Part shown: positions 4,611-21,306 of the stretch, one piece after another
Layout of the letters: every line of letters begins with the position of its first letter
How positions within the stretch are numbered: position 1 is the first letter of the stretch
Virus record (IMG/VR): IMGVR_UViG_3300031701_000005
Span: 1-38,127 of that record
Source of the DNA: a virus
Lineage: Duplodnaviria > Caudoviricetes
Strand: one strand, 5' to 3'
Length of the DNA: 38,127 nt
The notes under the pieces: model-generated
What the model was told of the DNA's origin: nothing
What the model saw: only the letters and a program-made list of their open reading frames with translations
The model's database searches: none
Program-made: the position numbers and the translations under genes

Positions 4611-5402
4611 CTATGGGCGGTTGATCTTGATTCGCGCAAGACCGGCGGCGGTGGTTGTAGTTCTGAAAGTGCAAGCGGCAAGGGCGATCGCGTCGCCCCC
4701 GTCCGCGTCGGAGCGTAGGCCCCCGAGGACTTGGCCCACGGCGTTGACAACGATCCGGGCGAAGACTCCGCCACCGGCGGCCACGGCGTCCTCGACGTTG
4801 GCGAACAGTTCGCCCCCGCGCATGATCGCCATGGTGGCGCCGCCAAAATAACCATCGTCCACAACCGGATCGCCTTGGTTCACATTCATGTCGAGCGATC
4901 GGATCGTGATCCCGAGCACGTCGGCGTCTACTGATCCACCGGCCAAGAGCCCGGCCTGATCATCGAGGGCGCCTTGGACGACTGCGACCCCGAGGCCGAT
5001 CGTAACACCGCCCGCGGCGGTGACGGCCGCGACGGTCAAAGCCGAGGGGGCCGAGGGGGCCGTGATCGTGTAGACCGATCCGGGGTGGATGAACGTCAAG
5101 GTGAGGACGTTGGTAGCCGAACTCGCCACGGTGATGTTGAGGAGGTCGGGGTCAAGGTCGGCGGCGGCCTCAAGGCCAGCGGCGATCTGATCGGCCGTGT
5201 TCCCGGCGGCCGTGAAGCTAACCTGAAACGTCCCCTCGGGGCCGTCGATCTGGACGGTGTAAACGCCGTCAGTGGTGCCGCCCACGGTCACGGTTGAGAC
5301 TTGTGATAACAACGGGTTTTCGTAGCTGTCCACGGTCCACGGGGACATGCTCGCGATCTGTCCGTTGATCGCTACGGGTTGGTTATATTGGAATTGGGGC
5401 AC
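4611..5402 (-). CDS. Head decoration/cement protein with an inserted domain
   Basis: Lies between DUF2213 and the capsid gene. Shows the G.AVVQG...GITIRS...MAIMRGGELFANVEDAVAAGGGVFAR pattern of cement proteins. Confidence 0.75.
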   Translation of the reverse strand: MPQFQYNQPVAINGQIASMSPWTVDSYENPLLSQVSTVTVGGTTDGVYTVQIDGPEGTFQVSFTAAGNTADQIAAGLEAAADLDPDLLNITVASSATNVLTLTFIHPGSVYTITAPSAPSALTVAAVTAAGGVTIGLGVAVVQGALDDQAGLLAGGSVDADVLGITIRSLDMNVNQGDPVVDDGYFGGATMAIMRGGELFANVEDAVAAGGGVFARIVVNAVGQVLGGLRSDADGGDAIALAACTFRTTTTAAGLARIKINRP

Positions 5403-5404
5403 GG

Positions 5405-6637
5405 TTAGCCTATAGCCTTAGGGGTTCGGAGGTTGTCAAGATACGCCGCAAAAAGGGCGTCGGGATCGGCCGCGTCGGTTTTCGACTCGGGGTTGGCGGT
5501 CGCGAACAGTGCGGCCATGGTATCGGCCTCGGCGGTGGCGCGGGATCGGTGGAGGTCCACCGCGGCGTCGAACGACGCGCGGAGATAGCCCACGTCGTTG
5601 GCGTTGTTATCGAGGCGAGGCGCGAGGGTCGGGGACACGGCGAGGATCGCCGCGCGCATGATCTCGGAGTCGCTCACTCCGTCGGTCTTGGCGTCGGGGC
5701 CTATGATGTCCCGGGCCGTGGTCACGAGTCGAACGCGGGCGTCAATGCGGGCGGACTCACTCGATCGGGTGTCGTCGAGCTGCGCTTGGAGGGCGTCAAC
5801 TTTGGCGCGTAGGGCGGAGTCGGAATCCATGGATTCGTCTTCGTCTTCGTCTTCGTCCTTGGGTGGAAATGTTGGCGTAGCATCGGCGCGGAGTTTTTCG
5901 ATCTCGGCGGCCACTCGGGTGGCTACCTCGATCGACTCGTCGCCGATCTGGATCGCGCGGGTGTCCTCGCGTTCCGGGGTGTCGGGGGTCGGTGTTTCGT
6001 TCATCGTTTCGATTCCTTGGATGGTTGATCGGCTTGCGCCGGGGGTGTCAAGGATCCGGCACGACGGCCCGGCCCTACCGCGATCAACCACGGCTAAGTG
6101 GTTCCCTCGGATTTCGGTTTGCCTCGCGGCGTAGGTCGCCCCACCGGGCGCGACTCCTTGGTCTTGGATCACGCGGGAGGTGTACCCGCATGACAATTCT
6201 TTTTTGCCGCCGCGGATCGCCTCGATGGCGTCGGCGTCGGTGATCTGGATCGTGGCCCGCACGAACTCGCCGTCCCGGCGAACATCGGTTCCCACCGATC
6301 CGATCTGGACATCTCGGACGGTGGCCGCCGTCACGAACCCCGCGGGGTGATCGTCGGTCACCACGGCGAGGCGGAACGAGTCGAGGGTGTCGACGTTGAA
6401 CACCTGATCGTCGGTTCGTAGCTCGCCCCACGTCTCGCCCCCGGCGTCGGAGTATTCGAAAACCCCGGTCCGAGTTAGGCGGGCGTCAACTCGGAGGAAC
6501 CCCGTCTCGGGGTCCACGGTCGCCAGTGCCCCATCGGTCCTCTCGGGGTCGGTGTGGATCTCGCCCACGATCCGATCGACACGGATCACCGCGTCGGCCT
6601 TGGCCTCGACCTCGGGGGTGGTTGGCGTGTCGGTCAA
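5405..6637 (-). CDS. Prohead protease/scaffold (DUF2213-like)
   Basis: Motifs GFLRVDARLTRTGVFEY, TDDHP, GKKELSCGY and NHLAVVDRGRAG, followed by an acidic coiled-coil scaffold. TTG start at 6637 with GAGGGAG upstream. The 6883 start in the ORF track is an over-extension. Confidence 0.88.
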   Translation of the reverse strand: MTDTPTTPEVEAKADAVIRVDRIVGEIHTDPERTDGALATVDPETGFLRVDARLTRTGVFEYSDAGGETWGELRTDDQVFNVDTLDSFRLAVVTDDHPAGFVTAATVRDVQIGSVGTDVRRDGEFVRATIQITDADAIEAIRGGKKELSCGYTSRVIQDQGVAPGGATYAARQTEIRGNHLAVVDRGRAGPSCRILDTPGASRSTIQGIETMNETPTPDTPEREDTRAIQIGDESIEVATRVAAEIEKLRADATPTFPPKDEDEDEDESMDSDSALRAKVDALQAQLDDTRSSESARIDARVRLVTTARDIIGPDAKTDGVSDSEIMRAAILAVSPTLAPRLDNNANDVGYLRASFDAAVDLHRSRATAEADTMAALFATANPESKTDAADPDALFAAYLDNLRTPKAIG

Positions 6638-7679: not shown

Positions 7680-8243
7680 ATGACAACCGATCAAATCTAC
7701 GCCGCCCTGTCCCCCGTCTCGGGGATCCTCATGTACGCCGCCAAGGCGCCCGACCTCGCCGAGGCGATCACCACCTACGCCCGAGAGATCGGAGCCTCAC
7801 CCCGTGAGGCCGCCGACGAGGTCGAGTGGTACCGGCTACCCGCCGACACCGAGATCGACCATTGGGATCACGTGTGGGACGACGATCAACGCGCCGAGTG
7901 GGACGCCGCCGAGCCTCGCCAGATCCCCGATCATCTCGTGAGGGACGCCACCCGCGAGGCCCTCGCGAGGCGAAACACCCCCGCGAAAAGTGACCTCCAC
8001 TCCGAGGGGCTATACGTGATCAACGGAACAATGCACGGCAAGATCGCGGTGTATCTCGATGAGGCCACGGATCGGTTTTTCCTCGCCGCCGTCGCCGACG
8101 TCATGGAGGCCGGCCGGATCGGTGACTATAGCCTGTGGTGCGCCGTGGGCGGTGGCGTCGGTGAGGACGACGGTTACGAGGACGAGGACGACGCGATCGT
8201 GGACGCCCTCCGCCTCCAAACCCCCGCCGAGGTGGCCTCATGA
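7680..8243 (+). CDS. Acidic early hypothetical protein (187 aa)
   Basis: ATG 7680 follows AAAGGAAAACGAACA. Hand count gives about 39 D/E versus 15 K/R. Confidence 0.8.
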   Translation: MTTDQIYAALSPVSGILMYAAKAPDLAEAITTYAREIGASPREAADEVEWYRLPADTEIDHWDHVWDDDQRAEWDAAEPRQIPDHLVRDATREALARRNTPAKSDLHSEGLYVINGTMHGKIAVYLDEATDRFFLAAVADVMEAGRIGDYSLWCAVGGGVGEDDGYEDEDDAIVDALRLQTPAEVAS

Positions 8244-8707
8244 GTCGCCCCGATCTATCGGGGACATGGACGCCCCTATGGTCTGGCGACACCTCCACGG
8301 GCCGCCCCTTGGTCCTCGTGGCCCAAGGCGACGGCCCCAACCCCCGGATCGCGGTGTGGCCCCGAGACGTCGGCGGGGCCGTCCCGCTGTGGCTTGGATC
8401 GGCCGCCGACCTTGAGGCCGTCGTGGTCCATGGTGAGACGCCGATCACCGGGTGGAGTGGCCACGCCCTGATCGCCGCGTGCCGGGCCGTCTCGGACTAC
8501 GTCGCGGACGTGTGGCACCCCGCCGACCACCTCCACTCGTCCGGGTGGGTCATGTCCGAGGACGATATGTCTTGCCGGTGGGGCGTGTGGGAGTTGGCCC
8601 GCGAGGCGTCCGACGTGCGGATCCTCGGCGCCGCCGGGGCCTCACACGTCGCCGTACCTCGGGACGTCCTCGCCCGCCTCGCCCGAGATCGGAGGACCGA
8701 CCCGTGA
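8240..8707 (+). CDS. Early hypothetical protein (155 aa)
   Basis: ATGA and GTGA overlaps with both neighbours. Confidence 0.75.
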   Translation: MSRPDLSGTWTPLWSGDTSTGRPLVLVAQGDGPNPRIAVWPRDVGGAVPLWLGSAADLEAVVVHGETPITGWSGHALIAACRAVSDYVADVWHPADHLHSSGWVMSEDDMSCRWGVWELAREASDVRILGAAGASHVAVPRDVLARLARDRRTDP

Positions 8708-8928
8708 ACGACTTCGATCGCCAGATCCTCGCCTCCGAGATCGGAGGACTGATCCGCGACGCCCGCGAGGGCTTGGGCCTCTCGGTCGCCGCCCTCGCCG
8801 ACCGCCTCGACGTCTCGCGTCAATGGCTCACCCGGGTGGAGACGGGCGAGACGATCCCCAACATCCGCCGCCTCGTGGAGATCGCCACCGCCCTTGAGGT
8901 CGAGACGGCGAAGATCCTCCCGGACTGA
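8704..8928 (+). CDS. XRE-family helix-turn-helix regulator (74 aa)
   Basis: IRDAREGLGLSVAALADRLDVSRQWLTRVETGETIPNIRRLVEIATAL; GTG start at 8704. Confidence 0.9.
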   Translation: MNDFDRQILASEIGGLIRDAREGLGLSVAALADRLDVSRQWLTRVETGETIPNIRRLVEIATALEVETAKILPD

Positions 8929-15320: not shown

Positions 15321-15779
15321 ATGTCCATGAACAAAATATTTGAGGAATTCGACTCCGCCGATCCCGCCGAGGGCGGCGACGGAAAAAACCCGACGATCAC
15401 CGAGGCCGGAAAGCACAAGATCAAGATCCAACGGATCCGCCTCAAGGAGTCGGAGCAATACGACGCGGTTTATTATCTTGTAGATTTCGAGGTGATCGAG
15501 ACTAACGCCGACGGCGTGGCCGTGGGGGCGTCGCATTGTTGGGCGCACAATCTCACTAACAAGTGGTTCGGAGTCTCCAACGCTAAGCAATTTCTCGCGG
15601 CCGTCCTTGGGATGTCGGCGAGTTCGCCCGAGGCAAGGGCGATCGATCGATCTACGTTGGAGCAATCCTACGCCGACGATCAACCGTTGGCCGGGCAGGT
15701 GTTGAGCCTCGCGACGATCCCCAAGGTGTCCAAGACTGGTAACGATTTCACCGTCCACAATTGGAGCCCGTCGGCGTGA
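15321..15779 (+). CDS. Putative single-stranded DNA-binding protein
   Basis: Size, beta-rich pattern (GKHKIKIQRI, YLVDFEVIET, FTVHNW), strong RBS, and position between helicase and polymerase. Confidence 0.6.
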   Translation: MSMNKIFEEFDSADPAEGGDGKNPTITEAGKHKIKIQRIRLKESEQYDAVYYLVDFEVIETNADGVAVGASHCWAHNLTNKWFGVSNAKQFLAAVLGMSASSPEARAIDRSTLEQSYADDQPLAGQVLSLATIPKVSKTGNDFTVHNWSPSA

Positions 15780-17659
15780 CACTTACGGCCCTCGACACCG
15801 AGACGGAATTGATCCGGCCGGGGTGCCTCGCGCCCCGGTGCGTTTGCGTGTCGTGGGCCGACCAAGGCGGGGCCGGGGTGATCCACCACTCCGACCCCGC
15901 CACCTTTCGATTTGTTCGCACGGCGATCGAGGCGGGGCGGACGGTCTACGCGAACGCGCCCTATGATCTCGCCGTGCTGATCGTGCGGTGGCCCGACCTC
16001 GCGCCGGTGATCTGGCGAGCGCTTGAGGAGGGCCGGATCTCCGATGTCCAGACCCGCCAAAAACTGATCGACCTCGCGGGCGGCAAGTTGCGCAAGACCG
16101 GCCCCTACTCTCTCGCCGGACTCGCAAAACGTCACCTCGGGCGGGCGCTCGATAAGGACACTTGGCGGCTACGCTACGGCGAACTGATCGACACCCCGAT
16201 CGCCGAGTGGCCCGAGGGCGCGCGGGCCTATGCAACCGACGACGCCCGCGCCACCCTTGAAGTGTTCAAGGCCCAAGAGCCCCTCGCCAAGTGGGCCGCC
16301 GACGAGGCCGCCCAAGTCCGCGCCCATTGGGCGCTTCACCTGATCTCGTGTTGGGGGGTACGCACCGACGGCCCCCGCGTGGAGGCCCTAGCGTCCACCC
16401 TACAAGGCGAGGCCGAGGGTCTGCTAACTCGCCTCGTCCCCGCCGGCCTCGCCCGTGTGGACGGGTCACGGCTGCCCAAGGGGGCTGCCCGTCGCATGGC
16501 CGAGGTGTGGGGCGAGTCGGCCCCCCTCACGACCAAGGCCCAAAAGGACGAGGGCCGCGGGATGTCCCGGGCGGAGATCATCCGCCGGGCGATCGTGGAT
16601 GGCGTGGGCGTGTCGGTCACCACCGACACCGCCGCCGAGTCGGGCGATCCGATCCTCAAGGACTACGCCCGATACGGGCAGATCCAAAGCACCCTCGCCG
16701 GGCCGGTGTCGGCCCTCGCCAAAGGCGCCGCCGAACCGATCCAGACCCGATTCGAGATCCTCATGGAGACGGGGCGGACCTCGTCAAGCGCGCCCAACCT
16801 GCAAAACATCCGGCGCGAGGTCGGGATCCGCGAGTGTTTCACACCTCGCCCCGGGTGGGTCTACGTCGCCGCCGACTACTCGGCCGCGGAGTTGCACACC
16901 CTCGCCCAAGTCTGTGTCGATCTGTTCGGGGGATCGAAGTTAGCCGACGCCTTGAACCGGGGGATCGACGTTCATGCCCTTGTCGGATCGCAGATCCTCC
17001 GAGTGGACTACGCCGACGCCGTGGCGCTGATCGCCGATGGCGACCGCGAGGCAAAGGACGCGCGGCAACTTGCCAAGGCGGCGAACTTTGGATTCCCCGG
17101 GGGCTGTTCGGCGGCGACGTTTTGCGCGATCGCCAAGGGCTACGGGGTCGAGATCGACACCCGCCGCGCGGCCGAGTTGCGGGCCTCGTGGCTCAACGCG
17201 TGGCCCGAGATGGCCGCGTTTTTCCGGCACGTCTCGGGCCTTGAGGATCGCCGCATGGGCGGCCACTGGGTCCAACAACTCCGCGCCCCCCGGGTCCGGG
17301 GGCGGGCGAGCTACACGGCCGCGTGCAATTCCTTTTTCCAAGGACTCGCCGCCGACGGGGCCAAGGCCGCGCTATACCGGGTCGCCAAAGAACAACACAC
17401 CGATCCGGGCTCGGCGTTGTTCGCGACTCGCTCGGTGTTTTTCATCCACGACGAGATCATTCTTGAGGCACCCGAGGACCAAGCGGCCGACGCCGCCGAT
17501 CGTCTCGTGTCGGTCATGGTCGAGCAGTTCGGGCGGTTCGTCCCGGACGTCCCGCCCAAGGCCGAGGCGGTGATCATGCGGCGTTGGTCCAAGGACGCGA
17601 CGCCGACCCGCGACGAGGTCGGGAGGTTGATCCCGTGGGGTGGTAAGGTGAGATCATGA
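15776..17659 (+). CDS. polA: Family A DNA polymerase with 3'-5' exonuclease (627 aa)
   Basis: Exonuclease motifs LDTET, NAPYD and YATDD. Polymerase motifs TGRTSSSAPNLQN, A (ADYSAAELH), B (RQLAKAANFGFPGG) and C (IHDEI). Confidence 0.95.
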   Translation: MTLTALDTETELIRPGCLAPRCVCVSWADQGGAGVIHHSDPATFRFVRTAIEAGRTVYANAPYDLAVLIVRWPDLAPVIWRALEEGRISDVQTRQKLIDLAGGKLRKTGPYSLAGLAKRHLGRALDKDTWRLRYGELIDTPIAEWPEGARAYATDDARATLEVFKAQEPLAKWAADEAAQVRAHWALHLISCWGVRTDGPRVEALASTLQGEAEGLLTRLVPAGLARVDGSRLPKGAARRMAEVWGESAPLTTKAQKDEGRGMSRAEIIRRAIVDGVGVSVTTDTAAESGDPILKDYARYGQIQSTLAGPVSALAKGAAEPIQTRFEILMETGRTSSSAPNLQNIRREVGIRECFTPRPGWVYVAADYSAAELHTLAQVCVDLFGGSKLADALNRGIDVHALVGSQILRVDYADAVALIADGDREAKDARQLAKAANFGFPGGCSAATFCAIAKGYGVEIDTRRAAELRASWLNAWPEMAAFFRHVSGLEDRRMGGHWVQQLRAPRVRGRASYTAACNSFFQGLAADGAKAALYRVAKEQHTDPGSALFATRSVFFIHDEIILEAPEDQAADAADRLVSVMVEQFGRFVPDVPPKAEAVIMRRWSKDATPTRDEVGRLIPWGGKVRS

Positions 17660-18203: not shown

Positions 18204-18319
18204 TCCCGGTCCACCCGATCCAACTCGACGGGATCGATCCGCCGTGGTGGGCGCTCCCCCTTTTTGTGTTTTTGTTTTTGCTTTTTTCAACCGTCGCCGA
18301 ATGGACCAAAAGGAAATGA
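18200..18319 (+). CDS. Small single-TM membrane protein (39 aa)
   Basis: GGAGG then GTG at 18200; WWALPLFVFLFLLFSTVAEWTKRK. Its stop overlaps the endolysin ATG. Confidence 0.6.
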   Translation: MIPVHPIQLDGIDPPWWALPLFVFLFLLFSTVAEWTKRK

Positions 18320-18831
18320 TCAACCTCCACACCCGAGAACCTACCGAGATCGAAACCCTCGACACCTACCTAGTTGCGATGGGGATCGAACACTTCACCG
18401 CCGCCGAACTCTTGACCATGAAGAGGGCGGGGGTCACCGTGCCCGAACCCCCGCGCGAGTGGTGGCCGCGGATCATTCCGACCCTTCGCGCGGCCGAGTG
18501 GTTGCGTGAGAGGATGGGGCACCCCTTGATCGTCGGCAACTGCTACCGCCCCGATCCGTTCAATCGCCAAGTCGGTGGGGCGAGACGGTCCCAACATCTC
18601 TTTTTTCGGGCGATCGATCTAGACCTGCCCAACCGCAAACGGAGCCACGAGAATGAGTCCACGTTCTACTCGGCCGCGGCCGAGTTGTGGATCAGTCACG
18701 GGCGCGAGTTGTCCTTGGGGCTTGGTTTGTATCGCCCCTGGCGAGGGTCACGGGTTCACCTTGACACCGGATTCCGTCGCCGGCATTGGTCGAAAAAATA
18801 CACCGCGCCCCTCTTGGAGTCCTTGCGGTGA
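18316..18831 (+). CDS. Peptidase M15A-family endolysin (Zn peptidoglycan peptidase)
   Basis: LRERMGHPLIVGNCYRP..FNRQVGGARRSQHLFFRAIDL...VHLD (SxH-x6-D...H); AAAGGAA before ATG 18316. Confidence 0.85.
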   Translation: MINLHTREPTEIETLDTYLVAMGIEHFTAAELLTMKRAGVTVPEPPREWWPRIIPTLRAAEWLRERMGHPLIVGNCYRPDPFNRQVGGARRSQHLFFRAIDLDLPNRKRSHENESTFYSAAAELWISHGRELSLGLGLYRPWRGSRVHLDTGFRRRHWSKKYTAPLLESLR

Positions 18832-19445
18832 AAGTCTACGTCGGCCAAACTCGATCCCGAAAGTTGATCGAGGAGTTGGAGGGGTTGGGGTTCGGTGAAT
18901 GTACCCAACGCGGTGAGCTGCCCCCGCGTCGTCGGCCGTGGTTCGCAGATAATGGAGCCTTCCGAGATTGGAAAGCCGATCGCCCTTTCGATCGGGCCAA
19001 ATGGTGGGGCGACGTCCTCCAATACGATCAACACGCCCCGGACTTCGCCGTGGTCCCCGACATGGTGGCCGGGGGGTTGGACTCCCTCGCGTGGAGTCTT
19101 CAGACCGTGCGACCGATGAAGGACGCGACACGGGCGCCGCTGTATCTCGTCGTTCAAGATGGCATGGTCCCGCGAGATATTACTCCTCATCTCCACGATT
19201 TCGCGGGCCTCTTCGTCGGCGGTTCGCTTGAGTGGAAGCTGGAGCACGGGGAACAATGGGTCGAGTTTGCCCACGAGCATCGCAAGCCCTGCCACATCGG
19301 GCGCGTTGGCACAGCGAAGCGCGTGAGGTGGGCAAAGAGGATCGGGGCCGACTCGATCGATTCATGCTTGCCGCTTTTTTCGTCCGAGAACTTGGCGCGG
19401 TTCGTGGCCGCGGTGAACTGTACCCAATTGGAGCTTCCGCTGTGA
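18828..19445 (+). CDS. TGT-fold / DpdA-like (deazaguanine base-exchange-type) protein, 205 aa
   Basis: DNGAF, VVPDMV, VVQDG, LFVGGS..WK, CHIGRV and GADSID are in the motif order of tRNA-guanine-transglycosylase-like phage proteins. Confidence 0.72.
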   Translation: MKVYVGQTRSRKLIEELEGLGFGECTQRGELPPRRRPWFADNGAFRDWKADRPFDRAKWWGDVLQYDQHAPDFAVVPDMVAGGLDSLAWSLQTVRPMKDATRAPLYLVVQDGMVPRDITPHLHDFAGLFVGGSLEWKLEHGEQWVEFAHEHRKPCHIGRVGTAKRVRWAKRIGADSIDSCLPLFSSENLARFVAAVNCTQLELPL

Positions 19446-20899
19446 CCGCGTCGGCCCTTGTGATCTGTTCGGATTGTCTCGCCGGCTTGCGAGACTTGCC
19501 CGACGACTCGGTGGATTCGGTGGTGACCGATCCGCCCTCGGGGATCGCGTTCATGGGCGCGGCGTGGGACAAGGACAAGGGGGGCCGCGACGCGTGGATC
19601 GAGTGGCTTGCCGAGATCATGCGCGAGGTGTGGCGCGTGACCAAGCCGGGCGGGCACGCCCTCGTGTGGGCGCTCCCTCGCACGCAGCATTGGACCGCCA
19701 CGGCGGTGGAGGATGCAGGGTGGGAGGTGCGCGATGTTTTAATGCATGTATTCGGCAGTGGGTTCCCAAAATCAGCATCAGTTCCGATTGGCATCGACAA
19801 AAAACTAGGGGCCATGGGACATCGCGGCAAGGCGCACCACGGACACGCGACCGGCGAAGTGGCGAACGGCCGCGAGAATCTCAACGCGCCCCACGCCATG
19901 CCCGGGCACGATGGAATCACGCCAGAGGCCAAACAATGGGCCGGGTGGGGAACCGCGCTCAAGCCCTCGCATGAGGCGTGGATTCTCGCACGCAAGCCGC
20001 TTGCGGGGACCGTGGCGGCGAACGTGTTAGAGCACGGGACCGGGGCGCTCAACATTGACGGGTGCCGTGTGGGGACCGCGGACAACCTTGGCGGCGGGCG
20101 ATTGAATGGACCGACCGACATGGCCAAGACTTGTGGAGGTGCAGAATGGGACCGCCCGTGGATGCACGACGAAAACAGGCGGGAAGCATACGCGCGCGCG
20201 ACGGCTGAAAAAGTCGCGCGCGCGGAGTCTCTAGGCCGATGGCCCCCGCATCTCCTCCTATCCCACGGTCCCGACTGCGGGGAGACATGCGCGGACGGGT
20301 GCTCGGTCGCGGAGATGGACGCGCAGAGCGGGGTACAAAAGAGCCAGAAGGCAACCAAGCGCCCCGGCGCGGTGGCGTTCTCAAACGGCGACATGGAAGC
20401 GCCCACCCATGATTCTCCGTGCTACACCGACACCGGCGGCGCGTCGCGATTCTTTCCTGTTTTCCGGTACGTCGCAAAACCGAGCACGGCAGAAAAGGGC
20501 GCCGGCCTCGGGCACCGGGCACCGGCGACGGGGGGCGAGGCAACGGGGCGCAAGGACGGATCGGCGGGGTTGGACAACCCCCGCGCCGGGGCCGGTCGCA
20601 ACGGGGGCGCGCTCAACATCCACCCCACGGTTAAGCCTCGGGGGCTAATGGAGTGGTTGGTCAAGTTGATCACCCCGCCCGGGGGCGTGGTCCTCGACCC
20701 GTTCACGGGGTCCGGGTCCACCGGAGTGGCCGCCGTGGGGTTAGGGTTTGATTTTATCGGGTTCGAGATGTCGGCGGATTTCGCCGCGATCGCCCGTGAC
20801 CGGATCGGCCACGCCGTCGCGGGGGTGGAGATCGAGACGGTCGGGATCGAGGACTACGCCCCCAAGCCCGAGGCCACGGGACAAGGGAAATTGTTTTGA
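19442..20899 (+). CDS. N4-C/N6-A DNA methyltransferase, beta class (485 aa)
   Basis: DSVDSVVTDPPS (DPPY variant), GFPK, HPTVKP and VVLDPFTGSGSTG; GTG 19442. Confidence 0.92.
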   Translation: MTASALVICSDCLAGLRDLPDDSVDSVVTDPPSGIAFMGAAWDKDKGGRDAWIEWLAEIMREVWRVTKPGGHALVWALPRTQHWTATAVEDAGWEVRDVLMHVFGSGFPKSASVPIGIDKKLGAMGHRGKAHHGHATGEVANGRENLNAPHAMPGHDGITPEAKQWAGWGTALKPSHEAWILARKPLAGTVAANVLEHGTGALNIDGCRVGTADNLGGGRLNGPTDMAKTCGGAEWDRPWMHDENRREAYARATAEKVARAESLGRWPPHLLLSHGPDCGETCADGCSVAEMDAQSGVQKSQKATKRPGAVAFSNGDMEAPTHDSPCYTDTGGASRFFPVFRYVAKPSTAEKGAGLGHRAPATGGEATGRKDGSAGLDNPRAGAGRNGGALNIHPTVKPRGLMEWLVKLITPPGGVVLDPFTGSGSTGVAAVGLGFDFIGFEMSADFAAIARDRIGHAVAGVEIETVGIEDYAPKPEATGQGKLF

Positions 20900-21306
20900 A
20901 GTTCACGACCGAGATCGACCCCGCCCACTTGAGGATCAACGCGGCTTGGAGGCGAGGCAAGACGCGAGACGGTAAGCCGATCACCTACCTAGCGCCGAGG
21001 TACGCCAAGGCCCGGGCCGTGGTAGCGACGTCGGCGGCCGACGCCTCGGACGGGTGGCAGTTCGTCGGCCCGGTGTCGGTCACGATCGCGATCTATTTTC
21101 GCAAGCTAACTCGAACCGGACCCGCCGACGGTCTCCCATGGGGCGACGTGGACGGGCCGATCAAAGGGATCTTGGACGCCCTCCAACACTCGGGGGTCTT
21201 GGCCGACGACGCGCAAGTCTTGGAGGTCTACGCGATCAAGTTTCGCGACAAGGATCGGCCGAGGATCGAGATCGAGATCACAACTCCGACCCCGGCCCCG
21301 GGTTGA
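20896..21306 (+). CDS. rusA: RusA-family Holliday junction resolvase
   Basis: GPVSVTI, GDVDGPIKGILDAL..GVLADDAQV and PRIEIEI. Confidence 0.88.
   Translation: MKFTTEIDPAHLRINAAWRRGKTRDGKPITYLAPRYAKARAVVATSAADASDGWQFVGPVSVTIAIYFRKLTRTGPADGLPWGDVDGPIKGILDALQHSGVLADDAQVLEVYAIKFRDKDRPRIEIEITTPTPAPG

Follow-up and report, generated by a model that had tools for sequence, protein, structure and literature searches.

The window analysed here is a complete 38,127-base tailed-phage genome (IMG/VR record IMGVR_UViG_3300031701_000005; Duplodnaviria, Caudoviricetes) with direct terminal repeats (completeness 100%), whose replication operon holds two adjacent open reading frames (ORFs): ORF A, predicted to encode a DNA guanine transglycosylase of the TGT/DpdA fold, and ORF B, which encodes a methyltransferase-like protein. 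ORF A ends in QLELPL and ORF B in QGKLF, two short tails that resemble the peptides by which bacterial proteins bind the sliding (beta) clamp DnaN, and matching tails recur in both protein families. With moderate confidence, we propose that A and B are separable accessory genes and that their family-conserved tails would bind the host clamp, thereby bringing the enzymes to newly copied DNA. A first-pass annotation, made from the sequence alone, had described two genes overlapping by GTGA and ending in these same tails, with which sequence and translations agree; it had also joined them into a replication-coupled dual-modification cassette, which did not survive comparison with related genomes.

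Terminal tails and proposed recruitment to the host clamp

Tails were scored with a broad pattern, Qxx[LMF][FWLM] or Qxx[LMF]x[LFWM] within the last 20 residues, which was widened after the homologues had been seen. This pattern occurs in 2 of the 42 complete proteins of the window, and these are exactly ORF A and ORF B; among unrelated ORFs that neighbour the relatives elsewhere, it is carried by 6 of 261. Among the ORF A family (the query and the best 120 of 795 relatives), 78 of 121 tails match, versus 14 of 1104 internal windows, with a mean of 12.1 and a maximum of 21 over 500 shuffles; for the ORF B family (the query and 119 relatives, the best of 7997 scored), the figures are 56/120 and 9/2578, with a shuffle maximum of 7 (500 shuffles), and the narrower Qxx[LM]F is found in 44/120 members versus 1/2578 internal windows. 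Matches persist after clustering at 75% identity (ORF A: 62/94 clusters; ORF B: 39/90) and among distant ORF A representatives (49/150, the best 150 of 3034; shuffle maximum 17). Conservation of both terminal motifs, which the first-pass annotation had named as a check, is borne out among homologues under the broad pattern; the strict form QL[S/D]LF is rare (2/121 ORF A and 1/120 ORF B family members) and fits neither tail of the window.

The individual columns tell a similar story. In the aligned ORF A tails, Q is present in 68 of 97 rows and L or M in 82 of 99, and in those of ORF B (counting rows with a residue there, of 86) Q is present in 48/53, L/M in 54/57 and F/W/L in 54/57. The linker that precedes the ORF B tail varies in length and sequence, yet Q, L and F are retained; its residues 465-485 are modelled with a predicted local distance difference test score (pLDDT) below 50. 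Moreover, ten ORF B relatives without a C-terminal match have an N-terminal [L/Q]DLF. In further support, 0 of 19 soluble neighbours from the queuosine (Q) pathway carry the tail.

The clamp-associated protein Hda carries QLSLPL, a motif that does not appear in the available text of the review cited below. Both window tails, lying in predicted exposed termini, have Q at position 1, L at position 4 and L or F at position 5 or 6. According to PMC11139829, clamp motifs have Q at position 1, L or M at position 4 and F or L at position 5 or 6; position 2 tolerates several residues, with Leu the best and Gly weaker, position 3 varies, and the flanks are mostly acidic. Hexamers are found in Pol III alpha (QVELEF) and Pol IV (QLVLGL), while QLGLF of Pol II is of pentamer length. 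Judged by sequence, QLELPL fits these rules well, and QGKLF fits the anchor positions and is predicted to bind more weakly. We therefore consider it probable that both tails bind the DnaN clamp.

The clamp in question would be that of the host, for the beta-clamp domains PF02767 and PF00712 each gave 0/1 in a six-frame search of the complete genome (positive controls: matches in 10 and 11 of 14 genomes), in accordance with the earlier remark that no phage clamp gene is recognisable. A phage precedent exists in MuC of phage Mu, which has a host-clamp motif (10.1101/2025.01.04.631326). The literature searched, the coverage of which excluded most subscription papers and bioRxiv supplements, yielded no paper that describes beta-clamp motifs in DpdA or in methyltransferases of phages.

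In the mechanism that we propose, the host clamp loader would place DnaN rings on phage DNA under replication, at its nicks or primer-template junctions. Each tail would dock in the DnaN peptide pocket, its Q occupying subsite II and its L and L/F occupying subsite I, with QLELPL probably the tighter binder of the two. After replication, ORF A would exchange some of the guanines for a 7-deazaguanine made by the host, either preQ0 or an intermediate of its pathway; as the genome has no supply genes of its own, the density would probably be low. ORF B would methylate A or C, if its DPPS motif is still active, with F37 perhaps replacing the aromatic residue. The likely benefit would be a partial anti-restriction marking of progeny DNA. 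Finally, the adjacency of A and B would reflect the insertion of both into one accessory slot of the replication operon and not joint action as a unit.

Several observations weigh against this proposal. At the level of the tails, affinity drops when position 2 is Gly, and the E. coli clamp is bound less strongly when position 5 is Trp (PMC11139829); both residues are common in these families. Only 30 of the 103 complete ORF A-relative ORFs in the fetched loci have a matching tail, and the fact that one third to two thirds of relatives do without it implies that the tail is dispensable in the family. Likewise, a C-terminal match is found in only 3 of 19 DNA-modifying neighbours elsewhere (in a weak test, p 0.017 versus the 6/261 unrelated ORFs and p 0.23 versus the 0/19 soluble Q-pathway neighbours; 19 + 19 + 261 complete ORFs of 320). 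At the level of replication, the family-A polymerase of the phage is devoid of a clamp motif, so that the proposal has to assume that clamps are loaded on phage DNA. Regarding chemistry, ORF B has DPPS where the consensus of motif IV is (D/N/S)PP(Y/F/W), the aromatic residue stacking on the target base (PMC7544214), and phages with DpdA as their only such gene can lack the modification altogether, like Orion, or have very little of it, like 7-11 with 50 per million nucleotides (PMC6884629). Lastly, 6-bp palindromes are strongly avoided in the genome: CTCGAG occurs 0 times versus ~21 expected, GGGCCC 0 versus ~20, AGGCCT at 0 sites and GTCGAC at 1, the expectation for the four lying at ~13-21 (site counts halved, both strands reading alike). 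Such avoidance argues against blanket chemical protection and suggests that the phage does not depend on dense modification.

If the tails were inherited remnants, or bound a partner different from DnaN (a protein of the phage, an adaptor of a protease or the surface of the enzyme itself), no clamp contact would be needed, and one would understand why the motifs are short, degenerate, missing in many relatives and often ended by W or PW, and why the ORF A tail begins just 3 residues past the last helix. We hold this to be unlikely, in view of the Q-x-x-L-aromatic spacing, which two unrelated folds share and which ORF B relatives retain at one terminus or the other. A different possibility, which we rate as improbable, is that the tails do bind the clamp, mainly for localisation at the host replisome or titration of DnaN (interference with host replication, modification of host DNA) and not for the marking of progeny. 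Overexpressed MuC is indeed toxic through clamp sequestration (10.1101/2025.01.04.631326), and the phage encodes a polymerase, a primase and a helicase, so that its forks may have no host clamp. Against it stand the invariant catalytic residues of ORF A and the existence of tailed ORF A relatives on plasmids (183 records, mostly from Pseudomonas; the pQBR103 copy has QADFL after the core), for which their own DNA, replicated with the host clamp, would be the natural target.

Identity and relatives of ORF A and ORF B

The GTG start of ORF A overlaps the stop of the upstream peptidase gene within the GTGA at 18828-18831, and its stop is TGA. Its sole sequence-library match is PHROG 15826 (function not annotated), and searches of Pfam, NCBIfam and PDB sequences returned no match. 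The AlphaFold2 model (pLDDT 95.6) is a predicted TGT-type (beta/alpha)8 barrel: TGT accounts for 49 of the 50 listed Foldseek rows (best E 2.6e-6, TMq up to 0.67). In a wide structural search, an archaeal TGT came first (Z 15.5, root-mean-square deviation (rmsd) 2.8, 202 aligned) and a bacterial DpdA reached Z 13.8; the archaeal score was tied within 1 Z with pyruvate kinases and other barrels, and the fold alone is thus generic.

D41, D78, Q110, G131/G132, H156, R159 and D178 are invariant (99/99 aligned rows), and D41 and D78 align with aspartates of phage DpdA1. In a weak hhalign match (E 0.006), Q110, G131/G132 and D178 correspond to Q187, G213/G214 and D264 of E. coli TGT, whose D89, D143, Q187, G214 and D264 we take to be catalytic or base-binding. 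H156 aligns with H196 of 9g DpdA, the conserved His named as a phage DpdA feature (PMC6884629). Foldseek, invariant residues and DpdA1 alignment hence converge on the TGT/DpdA-like identity put forward in the first reading. Published DpdAs, grouped as DpdA1-4 in Cui 2023, nevertheless score weakly: a profile built from ORF A relatives gives its best score to SfI DpdA (25 bits), versus less than 9 bits for other DpdA1s and no score for HVTV1_69 (DpdA4), while DpdA2 and DpdA3 match ORF A structurally at E 3e-5 and 1e-4. Bacterial tRNA TGTs have a C-terminal zinc-binding subdomain; assignment of ORF A to that type was rejected, as the protein ends 27 residues past D178, with no CxCxxC and no PF01702 match. 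Most likely, ORF A inserts a 7-deazaguanine into DNA, the precursor of which would come here from the host.

Some published DpdA1 enzymes have suggestive C-termini of their own: 9g ends in LQDLFDE, CAjan in VMELF, and Vid5 and P09 in IQELF (the 9g and CAjan enzymes being validated; loci L174 3007-3960 on the minus strand, L179 1295-2215, L180 1304-2224 and L181 1301-2239, respectively). These xxDLF/xxELF ends, without Gln at position 1, concern 4 of 8 DpdAs, those of Rosebush, phiSM, Sonali gp87 and HVTV1_69 ending otherwise. An annotated beta-clamp gene adjoins dpdA or lies within three genes of it in 9g, CAjan and Vid5.

The minimal DpdA-like subfamily to which ORF A belongs has 3034 representatives at E<=0.001, and 22 GenBank records of actinophage relatives are annotated 'DpdA-like'. 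Its carriers (ReqiPine5, Ksquared, R6L, Sonali, Aoka and others) are absent from the available supplements of Hutinet 2019 and Cui 2023, in which control names are present; the short subfamily is likely distinct from the published DpdA-only group. A Q-pathway gene lies within two genes of the ORF A relative in 17 of 113 non-redundant loci (queD 12, queC 3, folE-like 1, queT 1), a Pfam count that took in 300 of 320 neighbour ORFs (the 20 shortest left out) and that is, like all our neighbour counts, a lower bound, many loci being short contigs. A tblastn count of 29/113 was set aside, as it takes in likely artefacts from seeds that overlap their own A gene (L017, L082, L123). R159, invariant, lies beside the base pocket; among the neighbours, queD is the most frequent (12 loci), while queC is rarer (3). 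That the base inserted in some phages is the carboxy intermediate is speculative.

In 3 of 5 named phages fetched, a Vut_1 transporter gene precedes the ORF A relative, and the two possibly form a precursor-salvage module. The actinophage relatives so preceded are L063 3367-3924, L064 3050-3903 and L065 3384-3917, with a QueF-like gene in between in Aoka. Arthrobacter phage Sonali (L062) encodes a short DpdA-like protein together with a canonical DpdA (4884-5501 and 7871-8761), along with queC, queD and queE. Large plasmids of the Pseudomonas group carry relatives at L176 4731-5609 and L177 2665-4666; in L177, the gene adjoins one for a PAPS-reductase-like product ending in QMAFGF. Fused relatives of 700-1200 aa also exist (P0288, P0305, P0309, P0335, P0343), two of them with Imm5-like or DnaJ domains. 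A fusion of A to a methyltransferase was considered among the longer relatives and dropped, no methyltransferase domain being present in the 18 longest scanned.

ORF B starts with the GTG within the GTGA at 19442-19445 and stops with TGA. It matches PF01555 (E 6.5e-27), its best Foldseek matches are M.BceJIV and CcrM, and its motifs follow the order IV-target-recognition domain (TRD)-I, with DPP at 30-32 and FTGSG, of the FxGxG type, at 421-425. Motif IV is DPPA in 87, DPPS in 19 and DPPY in 4 of the 120 closest sequences (query included), the 106 DPPA/DPPS forms being followed by GIxFMG. Since the consensus aromatic stacks on the target base and DPPS has none, we file ORF B as methyltransferase-like, with putative activity. 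All 86 aligned rows keep motif I, DPP and F37 unchanged, and F37 perhaps substitutes for the missing aromatic. No paper on DPPA/DPPS motifs was found in the literature searched, most subscription papers lying outside its coverage. The middle of ORF B (19755-20422) is hypervariable among close relatives, with alignment breaks and replaced segments, as for an exchanged target-recognition region.

ORF A could also be a TGT-fold protein with another job (removal of bases from modified DNA, a tRNA or protein substrate), and/or ORF B a dead DNA-binding protein. The TGT fold does occur in proteins that insert no base, such as Cap10 (9ntn, Z 13.5, rmsd 3.4, 200 aligned), and both the weak scores of ORF A against published DpdAs and the DPPS of ORF B would be in keeping with it. 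We find it very unlikely, considering the recurrent queD, queC, Vut_1 and QueF neighbours, the DpdA-type His of ORF A and the invariant motif I, DPP and F37 of ORF B.

Separate genes in a replication operon

The genome has a G+C content of 64%, and GATC is plentiful in it (787 sites). A domain scan of 43 selected ORFs places contractile-tail and head genes on the minus strand, while the replication operon, on the plus strand, reads in order: primase-polymerase, exonuclease, helicase, family-A DNA polymerase, M15 peptidase, ORF A, ORF B and RusA (Table 1). The endolysin-like M15 peptidase (18316-18831) thus stands within the replication operon, away from the virion genes. Start-stop overlaps (GTGA/TTGA) link peptidase to ORF A, ORF A to ORF B and ORF B to RusA; being common to peptidase/A and B/RusA, they make the A-B overlap a matter of ordinary operon packing, and we rejected it as proof of a special pairing.

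Table 1. Positions of the features discussed, on the 38,127-base window.
Feature	Position	Strand
Phage family-A DNA polymerase; no clamp-like motif under the patterns tested	15761..17659	+
M15 peptidase, endolysin-like, upstream of ORF A; directly abuts ORF B in relatives	18316..18831	+
614-bp segment present here and precisely missing in relatives; GTGA on both sides	18828..19441	.
ORF A, 205 aa, short zinc-free TGT/DpdA-fold protein, predicted DNA guanine transglycosylase	18828..19445	+
QLELPL, hexameric clamp-binding-motif-like tail of ORF A, 3 residues past the last helix	19425..19442	+
ORF B, 485 aa, beta-class N6/N4 amino-methyltransferase fold (motif IV - large insert - motif I)	19442..20899	+
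Motif IV of ORF B, DPPS, usual base-stacking aromatic missing; subfamily pattern DPP[A/S]GIxFMG	19529..19540	+
Motif I of ORF B (FTGSG), S-adenosylmethionine binding, intact	20702..20716	+
QGKLF, pentameric clamp-binding-motif-like tail of ORF B, ending an acidic linker of ~20 residues	20882..20896	+
RusA-like resolvase, downstream of ORF B; no clamp-like tail	20896..21306	+

ORF A behaves as a precise insertion or deletion. In the L027 contig, which is 87% identical over 5.9 kb, the peptidase stop runs into ORF B through a single GTGA, with no ORF A, and the gene is likewise absent from the relative encoding P0124. Among four sequencing runs examined, contigs of X2 and X10 (two studies) contain the joint of 18827 to 19442, and X2 holds both forms, the one lacking A at depth 12 and contigs covering A at 3.6-5.1. 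Searches with the peptidase and the polymerase brought no close relative beyond the L027 contig. The third-position G+C of ORF A, 0.72 versus 0.76-0.85 in the seven neighbours measured, mildly favours a recent gain.

Nor are relatives of the two genes regularly found together. An N6/N4 methyltransferase gene lies within 300 bp and on the same strand in 4 of 113 ORF A-relative loci, and a tblastn search of ORF A against 34 ORF B-relative loci matched 0/34. Linkage of A and B is accordingly not conserved, and the precise absence of ORF A together with the rarity of the pairing points to two separable add-ons instead of a fixed cassette. As far as these sequences indicate, the A-B pair is a chance neighbourhood within regions rich in DNA modification and not a unit. 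A cassette selected and moved together may draw on the adjacency, the overlap, the tails on both proteins and a DNA methyltransferase of some class in 26/113 ORF A-relative loci (17/42 of those of at least 8 kb), but the clean absence of A in relatives, the coexistence of both forms in one run, the scarce pairing, the lack of fusions among the 18 longest relatives scanned and the three different classes of the neighbouring methyltransferases make it highly doubtful and leave it, as an obligate unit, largely refuted.

The notion of dual modification is further weakened by the missing supply genes combined with the DPPS of ORF B. QueC, QueD and Vut_1 each gave 0/1 in a six-frame search of the genome, with working controls, and FolE, QueE and QueF were not among the 43 scanned ORFs, no six-frame search having been made for these three.

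Wider reading and comparison with known systems

Beyond this locus, short tails might serve phage and plasmid DNA-modifying enzymes of unrelated folds as a general plug-in for riding the beta clamp, in a prokaryotic parallel to DNMT1-PCNA; we offer this tentatively, as a little less than an even bet. If true, it would include the large minimal DpdA subfamily and possibly the validated DpdA1 enzymes, and DNA-modifying enzymes would join the list of beta-clamp clients. DpdA papers describe the modification as post-replicative, and the available text of the Cui preprint nowhere uses the word 'clamp'. A clamp tail would be a one-peptide answer to the question of how DpdA and other post-replicative modifiers locate newly made phage DNA and attain their modification levels. 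It would also explain how bases can be swapped after replication, yet before the new genomes are packaged. The locus itself matters less as a cassette than as an example of a transglycosylase gained or lost as a clean 614-bp module.

With regard to the enzymes, ORF A shares with DpdA1 the TGT barrel and, with those of 9g, CAjan, SfI, phiSM and Sonali gp87, the residues D41, G43, F45, D78 and H156, while it differs from them in its mere 205 aa and in an identity of 12-19%. As in the DpdA-only phages SfI, BTP1, 7-11 and Orion (PMC6884629), no precursor genes were found in the genome. ORF B resembles the orphan beta-class amino methyltransferases CcrM, M.BceJIV and M.RsrI (PF01555) in its fold, its motif order IV-TRD-I and its FxGxG, and departs from them by DPPS in place of DPP(Y/F/W), by a large variable insert and by a flexible tail ending in QGKLF.

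With regard to the tails, A and B resemble bacterial clamp clients and MuC in having Q-x-x-L with a hydrophobic residue at position 5 or 6, a free C-terminus, an acidic flank (in ORF B) and, by implication, the host clamp as partner. Compared with the motifs of Pol II, III and IV, QGKLF has the disfavoured Gly at position 2 and a basic third residue, and its binding is a prediction from sequence. The carriers are here DNA-modifying enzymes, a kind of client not described in the available texts on MuC and in PMC11139829. The nearest published ideas are DNMT1-PCNA (PMC9690074) and the Pol I-linked M.EcoGIX (with M.BceJIII; PMC7736820), in which a methyltransferase is likewise brought to new DNA by a replication protein. 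DNMT1 does so through a PCNA-interacting-protein box (PMC9690074), and M.EcoGIX is a plasmid enzyme that co-purifies with Pol I, the clamp being raised merely as a possible intermediary (PMC7736820), whereas ORF B has a predicted motif for direct contact with DnaN.

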